Shown in pieces: positions 892 to 8,678 of a DNA stretch of 10,574 nucleotides (the first letter of the stretch is position 1; the number at the start of each line of letters is the position of its first letter). The position numbers and the translations under genes were made by a program. The notes below the pieces were generated by a model. It was not told the origin of the DNA, searched no databases, and saw nothing but the letters and a program-made list of their open reading frames with translations. Origin of the DNA: a virus (lineage: Duplodnaviria; Heunggongvirae; Uroviricota; Caudoviricetes); IMG/VR virus record IMGVR_UViG_2703718859_000027. The stretch is one strand, 5' to 3'.

Positions 892-981
892 GGAGAGATG
901 CCGGAGCGGCTGAACGGACCGGTCTCGAAAACCGGAGTGGGGGCAACTCCACCGGGGGTTCAAATCCCCCTCTCTCCGCCA
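892..981 (+). tRNA. serU: tRNA-Ser (anticodon CGA), class II tRNA with long variable arm; prophage attachment target
   Basis: 90 nt starting GGAGAGATGCCGGAGCGGCTGAACGG and ending CTCTCTCCGCCA. Acceptor stem GGAGAGA/TCTCTCC, anticodon stem CCGGT/ACCGG with loop CTCGAAA (anticodon CGA), long variable arm, T-arm GGGGG-TTCAAAT-CCCCC, discriminator G plus encoded CCA. Matches my memory of E. coli serU, which lies next to mtfA. Confidence 0.93.
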
Positions 982-1027: not shown

Positions 1028-1059
1028 TTGGAATTACTTGGAATATTTTGTTGGAATAT
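1028..1059. repeat. Three direct copies of (C/G)TTGGAAT(A/T)T at the 3' end of int; candidate arm-type Int binding sites
   Basis: cTTGGAATta (1028-1037), cTTGGAATAT (1038-1047), gTTGGAATAT (1050-1059), about 50-80 bp from the tRNA 3' end. Function is inferred only. Confidence 0.35.
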
Positions 1060-2059
1060 TCTGGGGTAATGGTACATCCAGTGTGGGTGAGATCTTTACT
1101 TTTCTATCATAGATTAGCACCTGTCCTTCGGTCTTGTGACCAGAGAAAAGTTGCTTATCCCGGCTACTACCTTCGTAATCTGATATCCCCTTGGCTTTAA
1201 GGTCATGGAATGTAAAATCCGTCGCGATCCCTGATATTTGTCCAGCCAAATTTCTTGCCTCAACCCACATTTCATTAAATCCTTTATACATGTAACGGTT
1301 GCCGTACTGATTGCTGATTACATAGGCTGACTTGGGTAGCTGTTTAGCTTTTTCTATAACTGATTGCAGACGGGGAGTCCAGGCTTTTATCTGTTTCTTT
1401 CCTGTTTTACCTTGCTGGATAAAGATCCCGTCGTTTCCGATCTGTTCCCATTTCAGAGACAACACATCGGAAATCCTTGCTGCGCACAGGTATGCAATTT
1501 CCATTGCGATAAAAACAGGCACAGGAGCCACGCTTAATACGGCCTGGTATTCTTTGTCAGTCACATAGCGCTCTCGGTTTTTGGCCTTGAATTTACTTAC
1601 ACCGGTACAAGGATTAGCCTTTACATACCCTCGTTCATACCCCCAACTGTAAACGCGTGACATGCTGCTTTTTTCATGGTTTGCCTGCGTTTTACTCTGC
1701 TCGCCCCTTTTGTCCATGTATCGTCTGATGTGCTCTGGTTTTACAGAATCGGCCAGCACCTTACCAAATACGGCCAGCAGCTTTTTTTGATGTTGCAGAT
1801 AATCTTTTTGCGTTCTGGGACTAAGATCGCTGTAATAGGCGCTGGCGAGAAATTTTTCCCACAAACGCCCAAATGTCATTGCCCGATCGCGATGGTTAAT
1901 TGTTTCTTCGTACTTTTTCCATAATGCGGCTAAACCATCCTCGATTGCAGTTAAGGTTACAGATTCTCTGGATGTCGGTTTCCATACATAACTATATTTA
2001 TTGGGGTATACCTTTGGCGGTAATTTTTCGTGTTCGGGATTTTTCCTTCGTCTTCCCAT
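1034..2059 (-). CDS. Phage integrase, tyrosine recombinase (lambda Int family)
   Basis: 341-aa ORF; N-terminus MGRRRKNPEHEKLPPKVYPNKYSY resembles lambda Int (MGRRRSHERRDLPPNLY). C-terminal catalytic region FHDLKAKGISD ... GHKTEGQVLIYDRK contains the H-x-x-R-like and HK...Y tyrosine-recombinase signature. ATG at 2059..2057, stop at 1036..1034. Confidence 0.93.
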   Translation of the reverse strand: MGRRRKNPEHEKLPPKVYPNKYSYVWKPTSRESVTLTAIEDGLAALWKKYEETINHRDRAMTFGRLWEKFLASAYYSDLSPRTQKDYLQHQKKLLAVFGKVLADSVKPEHIRRYMDKRGEQSKTQANHEKSSMSRVYSWGYERGYVKANPCTGVSKFKAKNRERYVTDKEYQAVLSVAPVPVFIAMEIAYLCAARISDVLSLKWEQIGNDGIFIQQGKTGKKQIKAWTPRLQSVIEKAKQLPKSAYVISNQYGNRYMYKGFNEMWVEARNLAGQISGIATDFTFHDLKAKGISDYEGSSRDKQLFSGHKTEGQVLIYDRKVKISPTLDVPLPQNIPTKYSK

Positions 2060-2262
2060 TAGATCGCACCGAAATCAGGTTCAGCCTCACGTGGTGGTAA
2101 AGTGTTTCTACAGGTAAACAGTTCCCGACTGACGATCGGTTTTCCACTACGATTGGTATAGAACGGAAGCCCATTTTTTATTAACCAGTTGCGCTGGTGG
2201 CTTGCATATTTGCAGCCCGTTAATATTAGCAATTCATCTTCGGTTAAAAATAAGCTGCTCAT
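2059..2262 (-). CDS. Excisionase-like small DNA-binding protein (DUF4224-type, Xis candidate)
   Basis: 67-aa ORF directly upstream of int; its stop TAA overlaps the int ATG by 1 nt (TAATG), suggesting translational coupling. The sequence LTEDELLILTGCKYASHQRNWLIKNGLPFYTNRSGKPIVSR resembles integrase-associated DUF4224/Xis-like proteins (from memory). Confidence 0.7.
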   Translation of the reverse strand: MSSLFLTEDELLILTGCKYASHQRNWLIKNGLPFYTNRSGKPIVSRELFTCRNTLPPREAEPDFGAI

Positions 2263-2320: not shown

Positions 2321-4759
2321 TTAAAAATCAGCCTGACTCGGGAACAGTTTTTGCCAGATAGCTGAAACGTATTTTGCCTGGTAACGCGCATCGTGCAGGG
2401 CATTATGGCGTTCACCCTCAAATGTGGTGACGTTGCGGGCATCGAAATCCATCACCAACCCCAGAGCGACCATCGTTCTTACATCGCGATCATTGGTGTA
2501 ACGCCACGGGCAGGGGATCTCCTGCCGTTCATATGAACGGCGTAAAATCACGTTGTCGAAGTTGGCTCCATTTCCCCAGACCTGAACAAAAAACTCACCG
2601 GAGTTTTCGTCTATAAATTCCCGTAATTGTAAAAGCGCATCATCAAGCGGTATTCGATCAGCTAAAATGGCGGCACGGGCTTCGCCAGAGCGTTGAAGCC
2701 ACCATTCGATGGTGCTTATGTCTACAGTGCCGCCACATGTACCCATATCAATTATTTTGCTGAATTCAGGCCCCTGCTCTCCGGTTTGTGGATCGAAAAA
2801 TACAGCGCCTATTGAGGCTATTGGTGCGTCAGGATTTTTGCCCATTGTTTCAAGGTCAATCATCAGATGGTGCCACAACCTGTTGGTGGATGTGATTTCA
2901 CGATGACCGTTCACCTTAATTAAGGGATTTGCTGTCTCGCCTGTTTCATTATTGCCATTGGCATGTTGATCGCCTTCGGTGCACTCCTTGTTCGGGAGTC
3001 CGGCACTTTCCATTTCCTCCGGATCTTTTTCCCGTGCTTCATCCTGGCTTTCTTCGTTGAATGTCTCCTGGTAGGTTGCGTCACCCATCACTGCGCCACA
3101 ATCAGGGCAGTTACCACCACCAGTCTGATTGCATGCGGTACAAACTTTTTCCTCTTCCTGTTGCACTACTGGTTCAGGTTGTTTCGTTTCTGGCTCGTTT
3201 TGTAACGCATTTGGGCTGTTTTGTTCCGCTTTCTGACCGTTCTGTTCCGTTTCTTGCTGGTTCTGGTTCACAGAATCGCAGGTTTCAATCCCCTTAACCC
3301 ATTTTGGATCATTCGGGTCGCTAATCCCTTCAACAAACTCACCACGAGAAGCGGCAAGCAATTTGTCGGCATCTGGTCGACTGATGTCTGCTGCCTCCAT
3401 AATTTTATTTACTTCTTCAGCAGTAACTTTTACCTGTGACTTGTCATCCAGCGGCTGCGGGTCCTGATGATGTTCAACTGTATCCGCTGCCATTGTTTCA
3501 GCCGTTGCCTGTTCATCTGCCATTGCGCCAGATGGTTGCGGGTTTTCTTCATTATTTTTTTCTTCTTCTGTTTTGCACTCAGCAGCCAGTCCGCCGTTAA
3601 TTTCTTCCAGGATATCTTTTTCCGGTGTATGCCGGGCAGCCGTGAGAGTTTCAGTTGTGGGATTCTCGTGATCGGTCTCTGTCAGGTTGGCATTGATATA
3701 CCCCTGAAGACGTCCCGGGTAGTGATAAAACTCAGGGGGGGCGCTCCGGATAAGTGCAAAAATAGCTGCGCGGGAATAGTCCAGGATACCAGGGGTTGCG
3801 CGAAGTGCTGGGGACCATTCCCTGAACGGACTTTCTTTTTTCAGGACGATTTCTTTTGCGCGACGATAAACGCTCACGGGTATTTCATAAATATTAAAAT
3901 CCATCGGAAGTGTGGCTGCTGCAATCTCCACATCCAGAGTATCGAGGGTGTGTACTAAATCAGGATTACGATCCGTTTTATTTCCGCCACCGGCATTTGC
4001 ACCGGAAGCCGTGCGGGTGATGCGAGAAACACGATTTCCTTTCATCCACTCTTTTGTCAGCAGACCTCGATCGGTATAGTCAGCGTCCAGGTATGCTTCG
4101 AAAAAAGCAGTCATTAACCCCAGACTGGAATTAACGGGATTAGGGAAAACTTTGTCTGTGTCGCGTACCAGTTTATGAAGGTCGCGAATCTCCAGCGGGT
4201 CGAGCAGCTTTGTGTTGTGGGAAATAGCCAGGGCAGTAACAGCCGGCAGTTCTTCAGCTCGTGCGATATGTAATGCCTGAAGTTCTTCCCGTGAAACGTG
4301 CGTTACCGGTTTTTCGCTGCCATGTTGCGCAAGCCAGCGAATGGGCAGTTCCTGACCGGAAATCGGCAGGAGCATATTATCCTCAATCTCAGCCATGTTT
4401 TCGCCATTGACGTTGGTATTGTCAGTGCTGGCTGGTTTGTCCTGAACTGAGGGGGAGGGCGCTATAAATATCATTGTGATGCCATCTTCCCCGCCTTTTT
4501 CATAGCGGTTGCAGAATTCAGTATCAAACACGCCTTCCGGTGGAAGGTCATTCACAACGGGGAAATGGACGCGGACGGGTTTTTTGAAATCATCTGCGTC
4601 GTAGCCTGCCTCGTCCATTGCAACAACGCACCGTGAGATGGCAACAGATAATTTTTTTGCTGTAGTCCAGTAAAAACCTCCTTTAATCCCAAGGCGTTTT
4701 CTGACCTTGTCATTTTTTGCTTCGCAATATAGCGAAAATTCTTCTTTATCAGTGCTCAT
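2321..4759 (-). CDS. Large prophage exonuclease: unknown N-terminal domain, acidic disordered linker with CxxC...CxxC zinc-ribbon-like motif, C-terminal DnaQ-like DEDDh 3'-5' exonuclease domain
   Basis: 812-aa ORF with ATG at 4759..4757 and GAGGT Shine-Dalgarno 6 nt upstream. C-terminal motifs MIDLETMG (Exo I, DxE), [12 protein letters not shown] (Exo II) and [10 protein letters not shown] (Exo III, H-x4-D). Central low-complexity region rich in E/Q/N/T, with [16 protein letters not shown]. Occupies the exo/recE slot between xis and the kil-like genes. Confidence 0.85.
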
Positions 4760-4851: not shown

Positions 4852-5040
4852 TTATCCAGCCGGTGTTTCGTTATTCAGGTACAGCGATACTTTTTTTAAC
4901 GGGAGGCATTCACCAGAAATTTTTTGCTCGTCTCTTGCCTGGAGGCAGGATTCTTTACTGGCATAAATTCCGGTAATCACATTCTGTGATTCACCCGTTA
5001 TAAGAAAAACCGTCATCACCAGTGCAAATGCTGAAGTCAT
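4852..5040 (-). CDS. Small secreted/membrane protein, YdfD-like (Qin prophage lysis-protein family) candidate
   Basis: 62-aa ORF with hydrophobic N-terminus MTSAFALVMTVFLITG (signal-peptide-like). Its ATG (5040..5038) overlaps the dicB stop (ATGA), as for ydfD downstream of dicB in Qin. Family assignment is from memory of YdfD, not alignment. Confidence 0.6.
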   Translation of the reverse strand: MTSAFALVMTVFLITGESQNVITGIYASKESCLQARDEQKISGECLPLKKVSLYLNNETPAG

Positions 5041-5225
5041 TGACGTTCTCCGAAAATACCAAGTTCAAGAAGGGCAATTCTGGAGAGTATGGAATTATCA
5101 TTGAGAAGATAAGGCTCATATTTTCTCATCTTAATGGCATCTTCAGTAAACTCCCGGTTACTGAGCAGAACACCAATATCAAAACACCCTTCAGACGTAT
5201 TAACGTTTGGTAATAACGTTTCCAT
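5037..5225 (-). CDS. dicB: DicB-like cell-division inhibitor (MinC-dependent FtsZ-ring inhibitor of Qin/Kim prophage type)
   Basis: 62-aa ORF METLLPNVNTSEGCFDIGVLLSNREFTEDAIKMRK; N-terminal half closely matches E. coli K-12 DicB (MKTLLPNVNTSEGCFEIGV...FTEDAINKRK, from memory). GAGGA Shine-Dalgarno upstream. Confidence 0.85.
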   Translation of the reverse strand: METLLPNVNTSEGCFDIGVLLSNREFTEDAIKMRKYEPYLLNDNSILSRIALLELGIFGERQ

Positions 5226-5235
5226 TATCGCGTCC

Positions 5236-5793
5236 TCAACAATGAATTTTTAGTAATTGCTCCACAGTCATATTTTTAATTGCGCTCCGGTTTACAAGAG
5301 TCCAGCCTTGTTTCTCCAGATAAAACTGGAAGGTATCCAGGGTGCAGACCATTGCACCATCAGGAACGGTTTCAGTGAATTTGATATTGCCGTGTTCGTC
5401 GAGACGGATAACCAGGGTACGTCCGTCCCCGTGAATCATTTTGTCGGGAGACGGGGCGTTATTCTGGCGCAGTTCTTTCTCCATGCGATCGAACTCAGCG
5501 ATGTAGGCTTCTTTAAATGCAGCGGCTTTTTTGCCGGTGAAGCCCATCACCAGGAAAACGAAGCCGTTTTTGGTGATTTGGTACATAGGGAGTTTGCGCC
5601 CGGTTGAGTCGGTATATTCACTGGGCGAAAAATTTCGCTCAGTGAATTCTGCTGAACAGTCTAGACGTGAAATTTTTGCCAGTACATCTTTGTGTGGTTT
5701 CCGGAAATACTCGGCAACAGCTAAAGAGGATGTAACAGCACGCCCATTGGCGATAGTAATTTCAGGGTGAGAAAGGGCAGGGATAGTAGCCAT
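5236..5793 (-). CDS. Rha-family phage regulatory protein (N-terminal pRha domain plus about 85-aa C-terminal domain)
   Basis: Segment ITIANGRAVTSSLAVAEYFRKPHKDVLAKI...KLPMYQITKNGFVFLVMGFTGKKAAAFKEAYIAEFDRME matches the Rha/pRha domain (memory of PF09669). Start chosen at ATG 5793..5791 (MATIPALSHPE...) because a perfect GGAGG lies 8 nt upstream (5806..5802). The track ORF extends in frame to an ATG at 6087, so a 283-aa alternative exists. Confidence 0.8.
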   Translation of the reverse strand: MATIPALSHPEITIANGRAVTSSLAVAEYFRKPHKDVLAKISRLDCSAEFTERNFSPSEYTDSTGRKLPMYQITKNGFVFLVMGFTGKKAAAFKEAYIAEFDRMEKELRQNNAPSPDKMIHGDGRTLVIRLDEHGNIKFTETVPDGAMVCTLDTFQFYLEKQGWTLVNRSAIKNMTVEQLLKIHC

Positions 5794-5957
5794 GATGGCA
5801 GCCTCCATGATGAATTTCATTAACTCACCACCGGAGGTAGCAATCTCATGGGTGGTGAGACGCACAGGGTTGCTACAACCGGTCATCATGGAACCCGGCC
5901 AGCCTTGCGGCTGCCCTGCACGCCCCACCATAATCTGAATGTGGCTGTGCATTACGC

Positions 5958-5982
5958 ATAAAAAAACCGCCTGAGCGCGGTT
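5958..5982 (-). terminator. Candidate rho-independent terminator (minus strand)
   Basis: Minus-strand RNA reads AACCGC-GCUCAG-GCGGUU followed by UUUUUAU. It lies inside the in-frame upstream extension of the Rha ORF and downstream of dicF. Confidence 0.45.
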
Positions 5983-6202
5983 ATGCGCCATGATGAACAT
6001 CGGGGTAGCAATCCCGGCACCCGCTTTATGAGGTGCAGGTGCACTATAATTCCACCCGTTCTGGTTTTCAATAGCTACATTCAACATTTTCTCTTACCTT
6101 TCATCACCGAAGTGAACTTTGTCGATGCAGTGCCTGGTGCCTCCAGGTGACGTTAACCAGTTAACAATTAACGCCGGAATACAGAAGTATGCCCGTTACG
6201 CC

Positions 6203-6278: not shown

Positions 6279-6331
6279 AAAAAGGGTGGCAGAGCAGTCA
6301 CGGAGTAGAACTGATGCCACCAAAGACTACA
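6279..6331 (-). ncRNA. dicF: DicF-like sRNA (ftsZ-targeting antisense sRNA of Qin-type prophages); 5' seed differs from K-12 DicF
   Basis: Minus-strand sequence CUUUGGUGGCAUCAGUUCUACUCCGUGACUGCUCUGCCACCCUUUUU matches the 3' two-thirds of K-12 DicF (…GUUUGGCGGUAUCAGUUUUACUCCGUGACUGCUCUGCCGCCC, from memory), including the terminal hairpin GGUGGCA…UGCCACC plus U-run. Sits upstream of dicB as in Qin. The 5' boundary is approximate. Confidence 0.8.
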
Positions 6332-6799
6332 CATGGGTATTGTGGCGGGGCTGTCACTTAAGCGTATGGTCAACCTGACAACCCGGTGCATTTTCTGGAG
6401 CAATGGAGGAAACCCCAGCCATACTTACCGCCGCGCCATTTCGCGGATTGCCACAACCGGAAGCGCACGGTCGAAGAAATCTAACGACAAGCCTTCTAAG
6501 GGAAAGAGCTTCGCCGTACGCTTTCGCGTTGTGTGCCTGCTTTTAACCACGTCAGGCGAGGTGGTTTCCGTCGTTCCCCAACGACAGGAAATCTGTATAA
6601 TCTGGATATCCCCAACAACAGGAAGGTGTTTTATATGGTGGTTCAAAAGAATTGTTCAGGTACTGGTAAGCCTGCGGACAGGGCGGACATTCCGAATACC
6701 AGGAAACATATACCTGAGAAAAACATACGACCAAAACCATCTCCAGCTCCTTCAGAGGAGAGGGGGAACAGCAACAATCAAGCAAGCAGGTGATGATAT

Positions 6800-7246
6800 A
6801 TGGACCGGGATGATATTCTTGACAGGGTTTTATATGGCTATTTTCTTGAACAACTATTCTCTGTAGCGACTGGTCGTCTCGATAAACTTCTCTCAGTGGT
6901 GAGTATTATCCTCGGTTCATCTGTCATTGGTGGATTTATTCCTGAAGTTTCTGGAGTTCTCATTGTTGTGATAGCAACCGTTCAAACGATTTACGGATTC
7001 GGACAAAAGTCAGGTAACGCAATGAGAAAATCCGCAGAATATCTGCAGCTTTATGATGATGCAGAAAAATATTCCGATTCGGAATTGAAAATTCAGTTAA
7101 AGCTTCTGGAAAAAACAGATGATAATATTTGGTCGTCGCTTAAAGATATCGCAATCTTAAAAACCCGGATCAAAATAGGAATCTCCGTAGAACAACAAGA
7201 GAAACTGTCTGCAAAATCCAAATTGATGCGATTCCTTTGTGGTTAG
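6800..7246 (+). CDS. Small two-transmembrane-helix membrane protein of unknown function; candidate superinfection-exclusion / abortive-infection effector (SieB-like position, SLATT-like architecture)
   Basis: 148-aa ORF in an AT-rich segment, with AGGTGA Shine-Dalgarno 6 nt before the ATG at 6800. Two hydrophobic helices (LLSVVSIILGSSVIGGF and GVLIVVIATVQTIYGF) followed by a charged helical tail. Transcribed opposite to the surrounding early-left operon. Confidence 0.7.
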   Translation: MDRDDILDRVLYGYFLEQLFSVATGRLDKLLSVVSIILGSSVIGGFIPEVSGVLIVVIATVQTIYGFGQKSGNAMRKSAEYLQLYDDAEKYSDSELKIQLKLLEKTDDNIWSSLKDIAILKTRIKIGISVEQQEKLSAKSKLMRFLCG

Positions 7247-7344
7247 GAATACCCAGATTGTTAAAGATCATGCCGGATGCTTACCCGTGTCCGGCGAACG
7301 TATTCCACTTCGCCTGTGGAGAACTCTTTAATTACTAACCTTCA

Positions 7345-7497
7345 TCAGTCAGAGTTTCTTGCTAACCAGCGACGCGCGCCAGCTGCGGTTTTAAACGTTT
7401 TGCTTCTGGTATACGTCATCGCGGTAAACGTGCCGTCCTGGTTGGGAAACACGCCGCATACCAGAGATTCGTTGTTGCCAAGATTGAGCGTATCCAT
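7345..7497 (-). CDS. Small early-operon protein (50 aa), possibly YdfB-like (Qin prophage small protein)
   Basis: ATG at 7497..7495 with GAGG 5 nt upstream. Translation MDTLNLGNNESLVCGVFPNQDGTFTAMTYTRSKTFKTAAGARRWLARNSD, stop TGA at 7347..7345. Below the 60-aa cutoff of the supplied track. First gene downstream of the PL-like promoter; the family call is from uncertain memory. Confidence 0.5.
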   Translation of the reverse strand: MDTLNLGNNESLVCGVFPNQDGTFTAMTYTRSKTFKTAAGARRWLARNSD

Positions 7498-7770: not shown

Positions 7771-8058
7771 TCAGATAGAGAAGGGAAATTGTCGGCGAGC
7801 ATGTGTCACGCTTACAATCTCAATGCTTGAAGCAGCTACTCTGTACAGGATTATGTAGTTAGGGTGGGTCACTATCTCTCTCAACCCAGAAACCCGTTCG
7901 CTTGGTGGATATAGGTACGGATGCTCAGATAGAGGTAATACCGATGTTTCAATACGTATTTTAAGTCTACGCGCTGCCGGTGGGTTCTCCTTGGCGATGT
8001 AAGTTATGATCTGACGCAAATCATCGCGAGCAGATGGTAGCCATAAAATGGGCAACAT
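7771..8058 (-). CDS. parE: ParE/RelE-superfamily toxin (ParE2-like) of a three-component prophage toxin-antitoxin module
   Basis: 95-aa ORF MLPILWLPSARDDLRQIITYIAKENPPAARRL...YIILYRVAASSIEIVSVTHARR with the ParE/RelE pattern. Its start overlaps the antitoxin stop (ATGA at 8058). Confidence 0.88.
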   Translation of the reverse strand: MLPILWLPSARDDLRQIITYIAKENPPAARRLKIRIETSVLPLSEHPYLYPPSERVSGLREIVTHPNYIILYRVAASSIEIVSVTHARRQFPFSI

Positions 8059-8249
8059 TACTCGCTCCTGTTAGTTACAGCAATTTGAGCAATAAGATTT
8101 TCCATTTCAGCTATTACCTCGTCATGTGGAATTGCGGGGCGAGGGTCTGCAAGGCTTGACGCTACTTTAGCGCGCAACCATTCGTTGTAACTGTTTTCTT
8201 GTTCGATAGTTTCGAATTCTGAAACTATCGGAGAAAGGGCTGTACTCAT
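8058..8249 (-). CDS. paaA2: PaaA2-like antitoxin (small, intrinsically disordered ParE antitoxin)
   Basis: 63-aa ORF MSTALSPIVSEFETIEQENSYNEWLRAKVASSLADPRPAIPHDEV..., matching my memory of E. coli O157 PaaA2. Immediately upstream of and coupled to the ParE-like gene. Confidence 0.82.
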   Translation of the reverse strand: MSTALSPIVSEFETIEQENSYNEWLRAKVASSLADPRPAIPHDEVIAEMENLIAQIAVTNRSE

Positions 8250-8276
8250 GGCATAACTCCTCTTCTTGTACTGTGG

Positions 8277-8678
8277 TCACGCCCGGCGGCTTTTTTGTGC
8301 CGCCAGCCACCGGGCAATGGTTTCTTCCATTGATTTTTTTTTGTCTTTGATTTCTTGAAGCATTTTTTCTTGGTCCTCCTCAGGGAACGCACTAAAAGCC
8401 TGGAGTAATTCGCGTTGGCGAGGACCAATTTTCATCGTGTTAGGGGTGAACATTTGCTCCCCCTCTTCAGGAGGCAATAAAAACCAATGCAACGGATGCC
8501 CTGTAACCTCAACCAGTTTATCCAAACTTGAGGCTTTAGGTGTAGCCTTACCGCTGACCCATTGTTGAACAGTTTGTTGTGTCACACCAATTCTACGGGC
8601 CAGCTCAGCCTGGCTCCATCCAGTTTCCTGAAGAAGCTTGCTGATTCTGTACATCGATACTTCTAGGGCGCTCATCAT
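8277..8678 (-). CDS. paaR2: CI-like prophage repressor, HTH XRE family (PaaR2/RacR-like), no S24 peptidase domain
   Basis: 133-aa ORF with helix-turn-helix LLQETGWSQAELARRIGVTQQTVQQWVSG. Divergent from the cro-like ydaS and heads the antitoxin-toxin operon. Start is ambiguous between the ATG at 8678 (possibly leaderless; TAAAAT lies 7-12 nt upstream) and 8654. Confidence 0.85.
   Translation of the reverse strand: MMSALEVSMYRISKLLQETGWSQAELARRIGVTQQTVQQWVSGKATPKASSLDKLVEVTGHPLHWFLLPPEEGEQMFTPNTMKIGPRQRELLQAFSAFPEEDQEKMLQEIKDKKKSMEETIARWLAAQKSRRA

Follow-up and report, generated by a model that had tools for sequence, protein, structure and literature searches.

Three kinds of described systems come closest to the locus reported here, a cassette that joins a gene for a two-transmembrane (TM) protein of 148 amino acids (aa) to a proline-rich micro-open reading frame (micro-ORF) in the window (the whole stretch of 10,574 nucleotides that was analyzed, IMG/VR virus record IMGVR_UViG_2703718859_000027, from a virus of the Caudoviricetes). 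The first are the SLATT effectors, which are normally coupled to a SMODS, SLOG, TIR or RT (reverse transcriptase) partner. They are predicted to be pore-forming, membrane-disrupting suicide effectors (PMC7159879; DRT10 preprint), and how they are switched on is explicitly an open question in the DRT10 preprint. The second is the SieB/Esc/sas system (SieB being PF14163) of P22, lambda and Rac: SieB shuts down macromolecular synthesis in superinfecting relatives halfway through their lytic cycle while sparing P22, an abortive type of exclusion (PMC10883804), and the P22 sas RNA pairs with the sieB mRNA, switching translation from SieB to the inhibitor Esc (PMC12197685). The third, type II toxin–antitoxin and abortive-infection pairs with a membrane toxin, is taken up with the alternative interpretations below.

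The cassette has something in common with each. Like the SLATT proteins, the 148-aa protein is predicted to combine two TM helices in a hairpin with an N-terminal helix and a C-terminal helical extension; it shows consistent sub-threshold sequence matches to SLATT models and tentative fold matches to annotated SLATT proteins, is carried on mobile elements, and would presumably have the role of a membrane-disrupting executioner. Unlike them, its family lies below every curated cutoff, as a separate unclassified family (phrog_6315), lacks a nucleotide-generating or reverse-transcriptase partner, its sole conserved partner being a proline-rich micro-ORF of 26-52 aa, and stands in lambdoid phages under the governance of the sieB promoter and sas module. 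With SieB/Esc/sas it shares the slot, the orientation, a homologous promoter and antisense RNA, two products from one rightward transcript with an antisense RNA that covers only the first initiation site, and a small membrane protein that is presumed to act abortively. However, the proteins of the two systems are unrelated, and the products of the cassette come from separate cistrons rather than being a full-length protein and its in-frame truncated form. Reasoning from sequence and from these analogies, we consider it reasonably probable that the cassette is an exclusion or abortive-infection module expressed in the lysogen, in which a SLATT-like protein and a micro-ORF occupy the sieB control module and antisense RNA confers self-immunity. 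Its features are as follows:

6534..7270, no strand: insert (moron) relative to the insert-free Qin dicBF backbone, comprising the sas-like/promoter module, the micro-ORF and the 148-aa gene
6518..6639 (about), minus strand: sas-like antisense RNA, with ends inferred by homology to P22 sas
6535..6566, minus strand: H-type pseudoknot "unit A", 3′ domain of the sas-like RNA; on the plus strand GCCTG-cttttaa-CCAC-gt-CAGGC-gag-GTGG
6574..6601, plus strand: P_sieB-type promoter, with −35 TTCCCC (6574-6579), a 16-nt spacer and −10 TATAAT (6596-6601)
6635..6793, plus strand: unannotated 52-aa micro-ORF, with Shine-Dalgarno sequence (SD) AGGAAGG (6620-6626) and its stop 6 nt before the ATG of the 148-aa gene
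6800..7246, plus strand: gene for the 148-aa two-TM SLATT-like membrane protein, with an ATG start (phrog_6315, E=4e-24)

The membrane protein gene and its distribution

The 148-aa ORF is a real gene under purifying selection and not a chance ORF, since the ratio of nonsynonymous to synonymous rates (dN/dS) against alleles of 91-92% identity is 0.10-0.12, its family comprises 145 clusters at 50% identity, and its AlphaFold2 (AF2) model has a predicted local distance difference test score (pLDDT) of 93.9. The family was collected by an exhaustive profile search of 1.84 billion representatives, and all its members are standalone proteins of ~150-180 aa; the match of the 148-aa protein to phrog_6315, which is of unknown function, spans its full length. 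The position and ATG given in a preliminary description of this DNA are exact, and the strong SD that it noted is a good one (AGGTGAT, 6788-6794, 5 nt before the ATG), which overlaps the stop codon of the micro-ORF; the AT-rich content was likewise correctly read (GC content 0.385 vs 0.47-0.50 in the flanks).

Complete Escherichia coli genomes carry the gene at a frequency of ~1.6% (89 of 5426), always annotated as a hypothetical protein, and it is full-length in 72 of these 89. In the remaining 17, which are mostly O145, just the first 92 nt are left; in E. coli O145 RM9872 (L086, 3501-4848) an IS3-family element is found in place of the remainder of the gene and the immunity region. As products of an IS3-mediated deletion these remnants are uninformative on function, and we discarded them as functional evidence. 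Genome-collection scans returned few loci, none in the first and six in the second.

A conserved proline-rich micro-ORF precedes the gene

The preliminary description had taken the gene for an orphan and for the sole plus-strand gene between the integrase and the repressor. This has to be given up: a conserved micro-ORF on the same strand stands directly before it. Its product, MVVQKNCSGTGKPADRADIPNTRKHIPEKNIRPKPSPAPSEERGNSNNQASR, is proline-rich, hydrophilic and basic. A tiny same-strand upstream ORF is also seen with the two distant phage homologs of the membrane protein, one at 45% identity in the Providencia phage PSTNGR2lys and one at 30% in phage EKP1. When 79 loci were scanned and reduced to 38 distinct upstream configurations, 34 of the 38 were found to have a proline-rich micro-ORF that ends 1-18 nt (mostly 6-14) before the big gene, in hosts that include Escherichia, Salmonella-like bacteria, Providencia, Enterobacter, Klebsiella, Edwardsiella, Raoultella, Buttiauxella, Aeromonas, Photobacterium and Paraburkholderia. 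In nearly all loci its stop overlaps the downstream SD.

Across homologs the micro-ORF is 26-52 aa long, and its N-terminal half varies freely in length and sequence. The remainder falls into motif types that follow the clades of the big protein, namely H[IM]PEK[ND][IV]RPTPPPP, QVPYRPxPxPxP and SPRPAPPPPPPPKK. As the proline codons vary at the third position, and the conserved part has a dN/dS of ~0.14, selection acts on the amino acids of the micro-ORF. The micro-peptide has no family match in Pfam or PHROG. Because current annotation misses the micro-ORF, this partner is invisible in the databases, and our literature search found no paper describing the cassette or the micro-ORF.

The family member at locus L067 (4760-5460) is the single one that lacks a proline-rich micro-ORF altogether, and a different gene ends just upstream of it; here the protein may work with another partner, or the copy may be decaying. 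As for the manner in which the two cistrons are connected, we looked for a hairpin that would sequester the SD of the 148-aa gene, and found none that is conserved across 17 loci (P(unpaired) 0.2-0.8); accordingly, a mechanism in which ribosome stalling on the micro-ORF unmasks a sequestered SD was rejected. The most parsimonious explanation for the geometry is simple termination-reinitiation coupling.

Affinities of the membrane protein

Hydropathy places the hydrophobic helices at about residues 29-47 and 51-68, with a four-residue loop (PEVS) between them, and the second (TM2) is followed by a charged, helical C-terminal part of ~80 residues in which lysine and arginine are clustered. An AF2 model from seven sequences was too weak (pLDDT 61) and was replaced by one from a 94-sequence alignment (predicted TM-score 0.85), with helices at 3-44, 48-65, 67-86, 93-105, 113-126 and 138-147, which form a long helical hairpin with the TM segments plus three C-terminal helices. 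Hydropathy, loop and model together bear out the two closely spaced TM helices and the charged helical tail of the preliminary description; the N-terminal helix, which it called amphipathic, has a hydrophobic moment below 0.1 and is not. These data are best explained by a predicted inner-membrane protein that exposes a loop of only ~4 residues to the periplasm and keeps its N-terminal helix and its ~80-residue C-terminal helical domain in the cytoplasm.

When searched by itself, the 148-aa protein finds no match in Pfam, with no SieB (PF14163) at E<=1, and in NCBIfam it finds SLATT_4 alone (NF033632, E=0.011, 15.6 bits vs a cutoff of 55). The 94 full-length family members, scanned one at a time, match the NCBIfam SLATT_4 in 38 cases (best 2.2e-5, all of them sub-threshold), SLATT_1 in 12, mob_CxxC_CxxC in seven and SLATT_fungal in three, and no other family recurs. 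The family consensus recovers SLATT_4 from NCBIfam at E=3.3e-7 (30.3 bits, the cutoff again being 55), with further matches to SLATT_5 (E=0.0075), SLATT_1 (E=0.15) and mob_CxxC_CxxC, and it also shows a faint match to a holin family, Holin_BhlA (E=0.12). In a Foldseek search of BFVD most of the top 12 are annotated SLATT proteins, matched at a probability of ~1.0 and a TM-score of 0.5-0.66, but with E ~1e-2 and a high root-mean-square deviation; structure searches of the PDB with the model returned no informative relative and no SLATT structure. One member of the family already bears the SLATT name in UniRef. Because the SLATT signal is consistent and yet fails the curated thresholds, we call the family a putative distant, previously unclassified, prophage-borne SLATT-like branch that falls inside no current SLATT model. 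The earlier guess of a SLATT-like effector thus survives in the sub-threshold sequence signal, with which the fold matches at E ~1e-2 agree, but not at the level of the curated cutoffs.

The kinship with SieB that had been entertained for the protein fell away. In addition to the missing PF14163 match, an hhalign comparison of the family profile with SieB gave a probability of 0.3% (as a control, Rac SieB matches PF14163 at 1.5e-31), and homology was rejected. The protein also lacks a conserved in-frame internal start of the Esc type: M75, the only internal methionine before residue 140, is not conserved among the aligned homologs.

The sieB slot, its promoter and a sas-like antisense RNA

Rac shows the same gene order with sieB where the cassette sits, namely kilR, the kilS small RNA (sRNA) on the minus strand, sieB on the plus strand, and ydaF (DUF1391) and racR (the repressor) on the minus strand. 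This synteny, together with an upstream promoter region homologous to those of sieB in P22, lambda and Rac, upholds the earlier placement of the gene in a sieB-equivalent slot, antisense within the early-left operon. Judged by synteny, the cassette is in the sieB slot, where in this prophage it has replaced sieB/esc. In an alignment with the ydfC-dicF region of the K-12 Qin prophage the flanks are collinear up to ~6533 and again from ~7271, delimiting an insert of ~737 bp with a GC content of 0.414 vs 0.47-0.50 in the flanks.

The DNA before the micro-ORF shares homology with the DNA that precedes Rac sieB, right up to the start codon, a homology that extends to P22, lambda and many other phages. 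The promoter boxes of the window align with the annotated "P sieB" of P22 (AF527608 29690-29720), and as the mapped sieB RNA start (BK000583) lies 7 nt past that feature, a start at ~6608 is predicted in the window. The promoter is conserved across all E. coli variants. On the opposite strand, the published 127-nt sequence of P22 sas, obtained from RNA-seq (PMC13397905), aligns over its full length with positions 6515-6642. P22 sas is the reverse complement of the region that runs from the sieB start codon across P_sieB to a pseudoknot; correspondingly, the 5′ part of the sas-like RNA of the window is complementary to the AUG, SD and 5′ untranslated region (5′UTR) of the micro-ORF, and the RNA displays two GUUGGGG motifs, a stem-loop with a GGGG loop and a 3′ pseudoknot.

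Both stems of this pseudoknot (unit A) covary between loci, stem 1 as GCCTG/CAGGC, GCCGGG/CCCGGC and GCCCGG/CCGGGC, and stem 2 as CCAC/GTGG, CTAC/GTAG, CCTC/GAGG and CCACG/CGTGG, and only when it is read on the minus strand do its loops have the lengths of a classical H-type pseudoknot. We rejected its interpretation as a plus-strand 5′UTR element, as it lies upstream of the mapped sieB start, and as a terminator or operator palindrome, as it has no U-run on either strand, comprises two interleaved covarying helices and belongs to the published sas. Neither the sas-like RNA nor unit A has a family in Rfam. For 12 loci with five different cargos, RNAalifold recovered the stem-loop with the GGGG loop and a long-range pseudoknot stem; the structure has 19 pairs in four helices, with 84% of cells paired vs 30-41% in slid controls, compensatory changes in nine pairs, and a covariation score that none of 500 shuffles reached. 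Many of its G-U pairs exist on the minus strand only. From the full-length homology to P22 sas and the covariation, therefore, the window appears to encode a sas-like RNA on its minus strand.

The same leader, with its pseudoknot, P_sieB-like boxes and CCCCAAC motifs, is found before at least three further cargos, which are unrelated to SieB and to the SLATT-like family:

PhiR29_2 (L090 1501-2123): a 163-aa protein with CxxC...CxxC, zinc-ribbon-like
Shigella phage SfIV (L091 1501-2041): gp36, 144 aa
Hafnia phage Meifeng (L092 1501-1876): a 90-aa protein

PADLOC v2 matched nothing among these three cargos, nor SieB itself. Since the same leader stands before unrelated cargos, the sieB locus can be regarded as a modular socket, in which at least five of them have now been seen (SieB, the SLATT-like cassette, the PhiR29_2 163-aa protein, SfIV gp36 and the Hafnia 90-aa protein).

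Fate of the gene in a lineage without the micro-ORF

In one E. coli lineage ~130 nt have been lost between short direct repeats (acaagcaggtg), removing the micro-ORF and leaving the SD of the big gene in place. This deletion is found in eight of 41 IMG/VR loci and in five of 72 complete genomes (L025, L026, L030, L037, L038, L039, L040, L043 and L082-L085), and reading from the upstream ATG that remains now crosses the start of the big gene in another frame. The lineage could be taken as a sign that the micro-ORF is dispensable, an idea that we rejected because the big gene is itself decaying there. Its alleles show changes such as G148C, in a near-invariant residue; I98T; L11F with A74T, a background on which D108N and Q69stop have been added; and V61D, which puts a charge into TM2, together with E104G (a clade-invariant residue) and Q133H. 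In all, there are nine nonsynonymous or nonsense changes and one frameshift, with no synonymous change, whereas the intact cassettes differ by 29 synonymous vs 12 nonsynonymous changes and include no disrupted allele (Fisher p=1e-4 vs the deletion lineage). Hence, judged from these alleles, the big gene seems not to be maintained once the micro-ORF is lost, which fits an obligatory partner or translational coupler as well as a lost antitoxin.

Proposed function and alternative interpretations

In the mechanism that we propose, the lysogen would express the cassette rightward from P_sieB, antisense to the early-left (dicBF-type) operon, and the micro-protein, or at least translation of the micro-ORF, would be needed along with the SLATT-like protein to constitute an exclusion or abortive device. 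Upon infection by a foreign phage this device would permeabilize or depolarize the inner membrane, and the infection would thereby be stopped. Because the protein has almost no periplasmic residues, we favor a cytoplasmic trigger over a block to injection. The original work of Ranade and Poteete is said to have established that the sas switch lets P22 escape its own SieB, with the infecting phage supplying sas. By analogy, the resident phage and its relatives would be spared as the sas-like RNA made in lytic growth blocks initiation at the micro-ORF and coupling then lowers the amount of the 148-aa protein. Since the antisense RNA is aimed at the micro-ORF, we consider a labile antitoxin less likely than a partner, activator or coupler that is required. 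We infer both the exclusion or defence function of the cassette and its individual elements, namely expression, membrane damage, triggering by phage and the role of the micro-protein. We also tentatively offer a bolder version, possible if rather doubtful, in which the micro-protein would serve as the subunit for gating or sensing in a minimal pore-forming abortive system of two components, its SLATT-like effector operating without a nucleotide signal, and P_sieB/sas would be a general socket of lambdoid phages in which unrelated toxic exclusion cargos are safe to carry, because the antisense RNA of the phage itself silences the first start codon of the cargo in its own lytic growth.

Several observations weigh against the exclusion module. 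Neither the 148-aa protein nor the family consensus reaches a curated SLATT cutoff, and the Pfam SLATT_4 model gives E=0.092 on the consensus. PADLOC v2 returned for the 148-aa protein only a chance-level match to Csx1 (E=0.01), so that assignment to a known defence system was rejected. No SMODS, SLOG, TIR, RT or other nucleotide-signal partner adjoins the cassette in the contexts that were read. The minus strand within the cassette yielded no consensus sigma-70 promoter; the sole leftward promoter of consensus type in the vicinity is at 7705-7676 (TTGACA-18-TAGATT), just downstream of the PaaR2-PaaA2-ParE2 operon. Finally, the decay signal comes from one deletion lineage with few events, and its surplus of nonsynonymous changes does not depart significantly from strict neutrality (no synonymous change among nine, P ~0.10).

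The decay and the layout of the cassette might also be read, in what we regard as a possible but unlikely alternative, as those of a toxin–antitoxin pair, with the micro-protein as a labile, coupled antitoxin that keeps a SLATT-like pore toxin closed until its synthesis is lost, be it through translation shut-off by a phage, limitation of elongation factor P (EF-P) or loss of the prophage. A small first gene tightly coupled to a putative membrane toxin is indeed the arrangement of type II toxin–antitoxin modules and of abortive pairs with a membrane toxin; runs of PPPP to PPPPPPPP in many homologs would make micro-protein synthesis sensitive to the state of translation; and the exclusively changing, nonsense and frameshift mutations that followed the deletion, including the charge in TM2 and the loss of the near-invariant G148, are what selection for toxin inactivation would give, although inactivation or decay of the downstream gene is equally expected if the micro-ORF is simply required. 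The same set of alleles has a nearly intact member (L025/H78, with I102T only), which speaks against this reading, and the non-significance against neutrality noted above counts here too. Furthermore, the micro-protein, which is proline-rich and probably disordered, matches no family and lacks a DNA-binding or folded domain, and a sas-like RNA that strikes initiation of the upstream cistron fits an antitoxin poorly, as it would unleash the toxin in the phage's own lytic growth. The cassette therefore resembles a type II pair in layout only.

Less probable still is that the micro-ORF has no function as a protein, and is a translated leader that sets reinitiation at the 148-aa gene, possibly by proline-dependent arrest or EF-P sensing, and offers the antisense RNA a single point of control. 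The overlap of its stop with the downstream SD and the gap of 6-14 nt in nearly all loci, the commonness of polyproline tracts, the freedom of the N-terminal part in length and sequence, and the decay of the big gene upon loss of the leader would all suit this explanation. However, the version in the window (IRPKPSPAPS) has no consecutive prolines, so stalling of the EF-P type is not universal; non-proline positions are conserved as well (HIPEKNIRP, QVPYRP) while their codons vary synonymously; and the big gene is itself equipped with a strong SD, for which, as described above, no conserved sequestering hairpin is found. A different role at the membrane, whether as an injection blocker of the SieA, Imm or gp15 type, a holin- or antiholin-like factor in lysis timing, or a lysogenic-conversion factor, appears very improbable to us. 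Small inner-membrane proteins of prophages do often block DNA injection (PMC10883804), the cassette of EKP1 adjoins lysis genes, and the Holin_BhlA match of the consensus points the same way; but a periplasmic loop of ~4 residues leaves almost nothing with which an incoming phage could make contact, the cassette never shares a strand with the neighboring lytic genes, not even in EKP1, the promoter module used here is the lysogen-active one of sieB, and SLATT is the one family signal that recurs.

Genomic setting

The window represents a lambdoid prophage of the Rac/Qin type, in which the cassette lies among the following features:

892-978, plus strand: tRNA gene of 87 nt
1034-2059, minus strand: integrase
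2059-2262, minus strand: excisionase
2321-4759, minus strand: RecE-type exonuclease
4852-5040, minus strand: DUF1482
5037-5225, minus strand: DicB
5236-6087, minus strand: Ash/Rha gene (283 aa), overlapped by matches to C4 and isrK RNAs
6284-6335, minus strand: DicF sRNA gene (Rfam, 61 bits)
6635-7246, plus strand: the cassette (micro-ORF and 148-aa gene)
7345-7497, minus strand: DUF1391/YdfA
7771-8678, minus strand: ParE2-PaaA2-PaaR2
from 8787, plus strand: cro-like and YdaT-like genes

In all other contexts that were read, the family member is a lone opposite-strand gene in a prophage, and for this reason we regard the family as behaving like a moron. Its usual position is between recombination or kil genes and the repressor; in EKP1 it is found between the antiterminator Q gene and the holin, and in Paraburkholderia beside the terminase. 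Close prophages with the same cassette are integrated elsewhere, as in L001, by potC/potD with a different integrase. In the window, the tRNA gene adjoins the integrase and is the likely attachment site; beyond it, a host gene for a metalloprotease-like protein with an HExxH motif occupies 1-837 on the minus strand.

Within the early-left operon, the 5′ part of the Ash/Rha ORF (5848-6036, minus strand) gives Rfam matches to the C4 antisense RNA (77.9 bits) and to an isrK-like Hfq-binding RNA (64.7 bits), a layout that resembles the c4-icd-ant of P1/P7 and the IsrK-AntQ of Gifsy-1. The Ash/Rha protein probably has its true start downstream of both RNAs, even though the translated RNA region is covered by the Pfam Phage_ASH match; the whole gene is absent from the closest E. 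coli relative, L001. The DicF gene lies ~200 nt downstream (leftward) of the sas-like pseudoknot, and Rac has the KilS sRNA at the equivalent position. On the other side of the cassette, the PaaR2-PaaA2-ParE2-type operon, which comprises a helix-turn-helix regulator, the PaaA2 antitoxin and a ParE toxin, is placed between the DUF1391 gene and the cro-like gene, where a repressor would be expected.

Just past the cassette, at 7272-7321, there is a second pseudoknot-like unit (GCCGGA-tgcttacc-CGTG-TCCGGC-g-AACG) with a hairpin (TCCAC...GTGGA). These are Qin backbone sequence; units B and C were rejected as parts of the cassette because they belong to that backbone. In the Klebsiella/Edwardsiella clade, elements of the 7272-7321 type are found upstream of the micro-ORF, with a covarying stem (GCCAGA/TCTGGC, L057), and there CTCCAC, GTGGAG, CTCCAT and ATGGAG (the SD of the micro-ORF) could form alternative pairings in the manner of an attenuator.

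Implications

We know of no studied SLATT system that does without a large enzymatic partner. The cassette described here would pair a SLATT-like protein with just a proline-rich peptide of 26-52 aa, and it is thus small enough for full dissection by mutagenesis; beyond E. coli, it is present in many other Proteobacteria. The classical sieB locus proves to be modular, with a conserved unit of promoter and antisense RNA serving varied cargos, and this can guide the search for new exclusion genes in lambdoid prophages. Moreover, the proposed antisense self-immunity offers a testable mechanism by which a prophage may carry a suicide effector without harm to its own lytic cycle.

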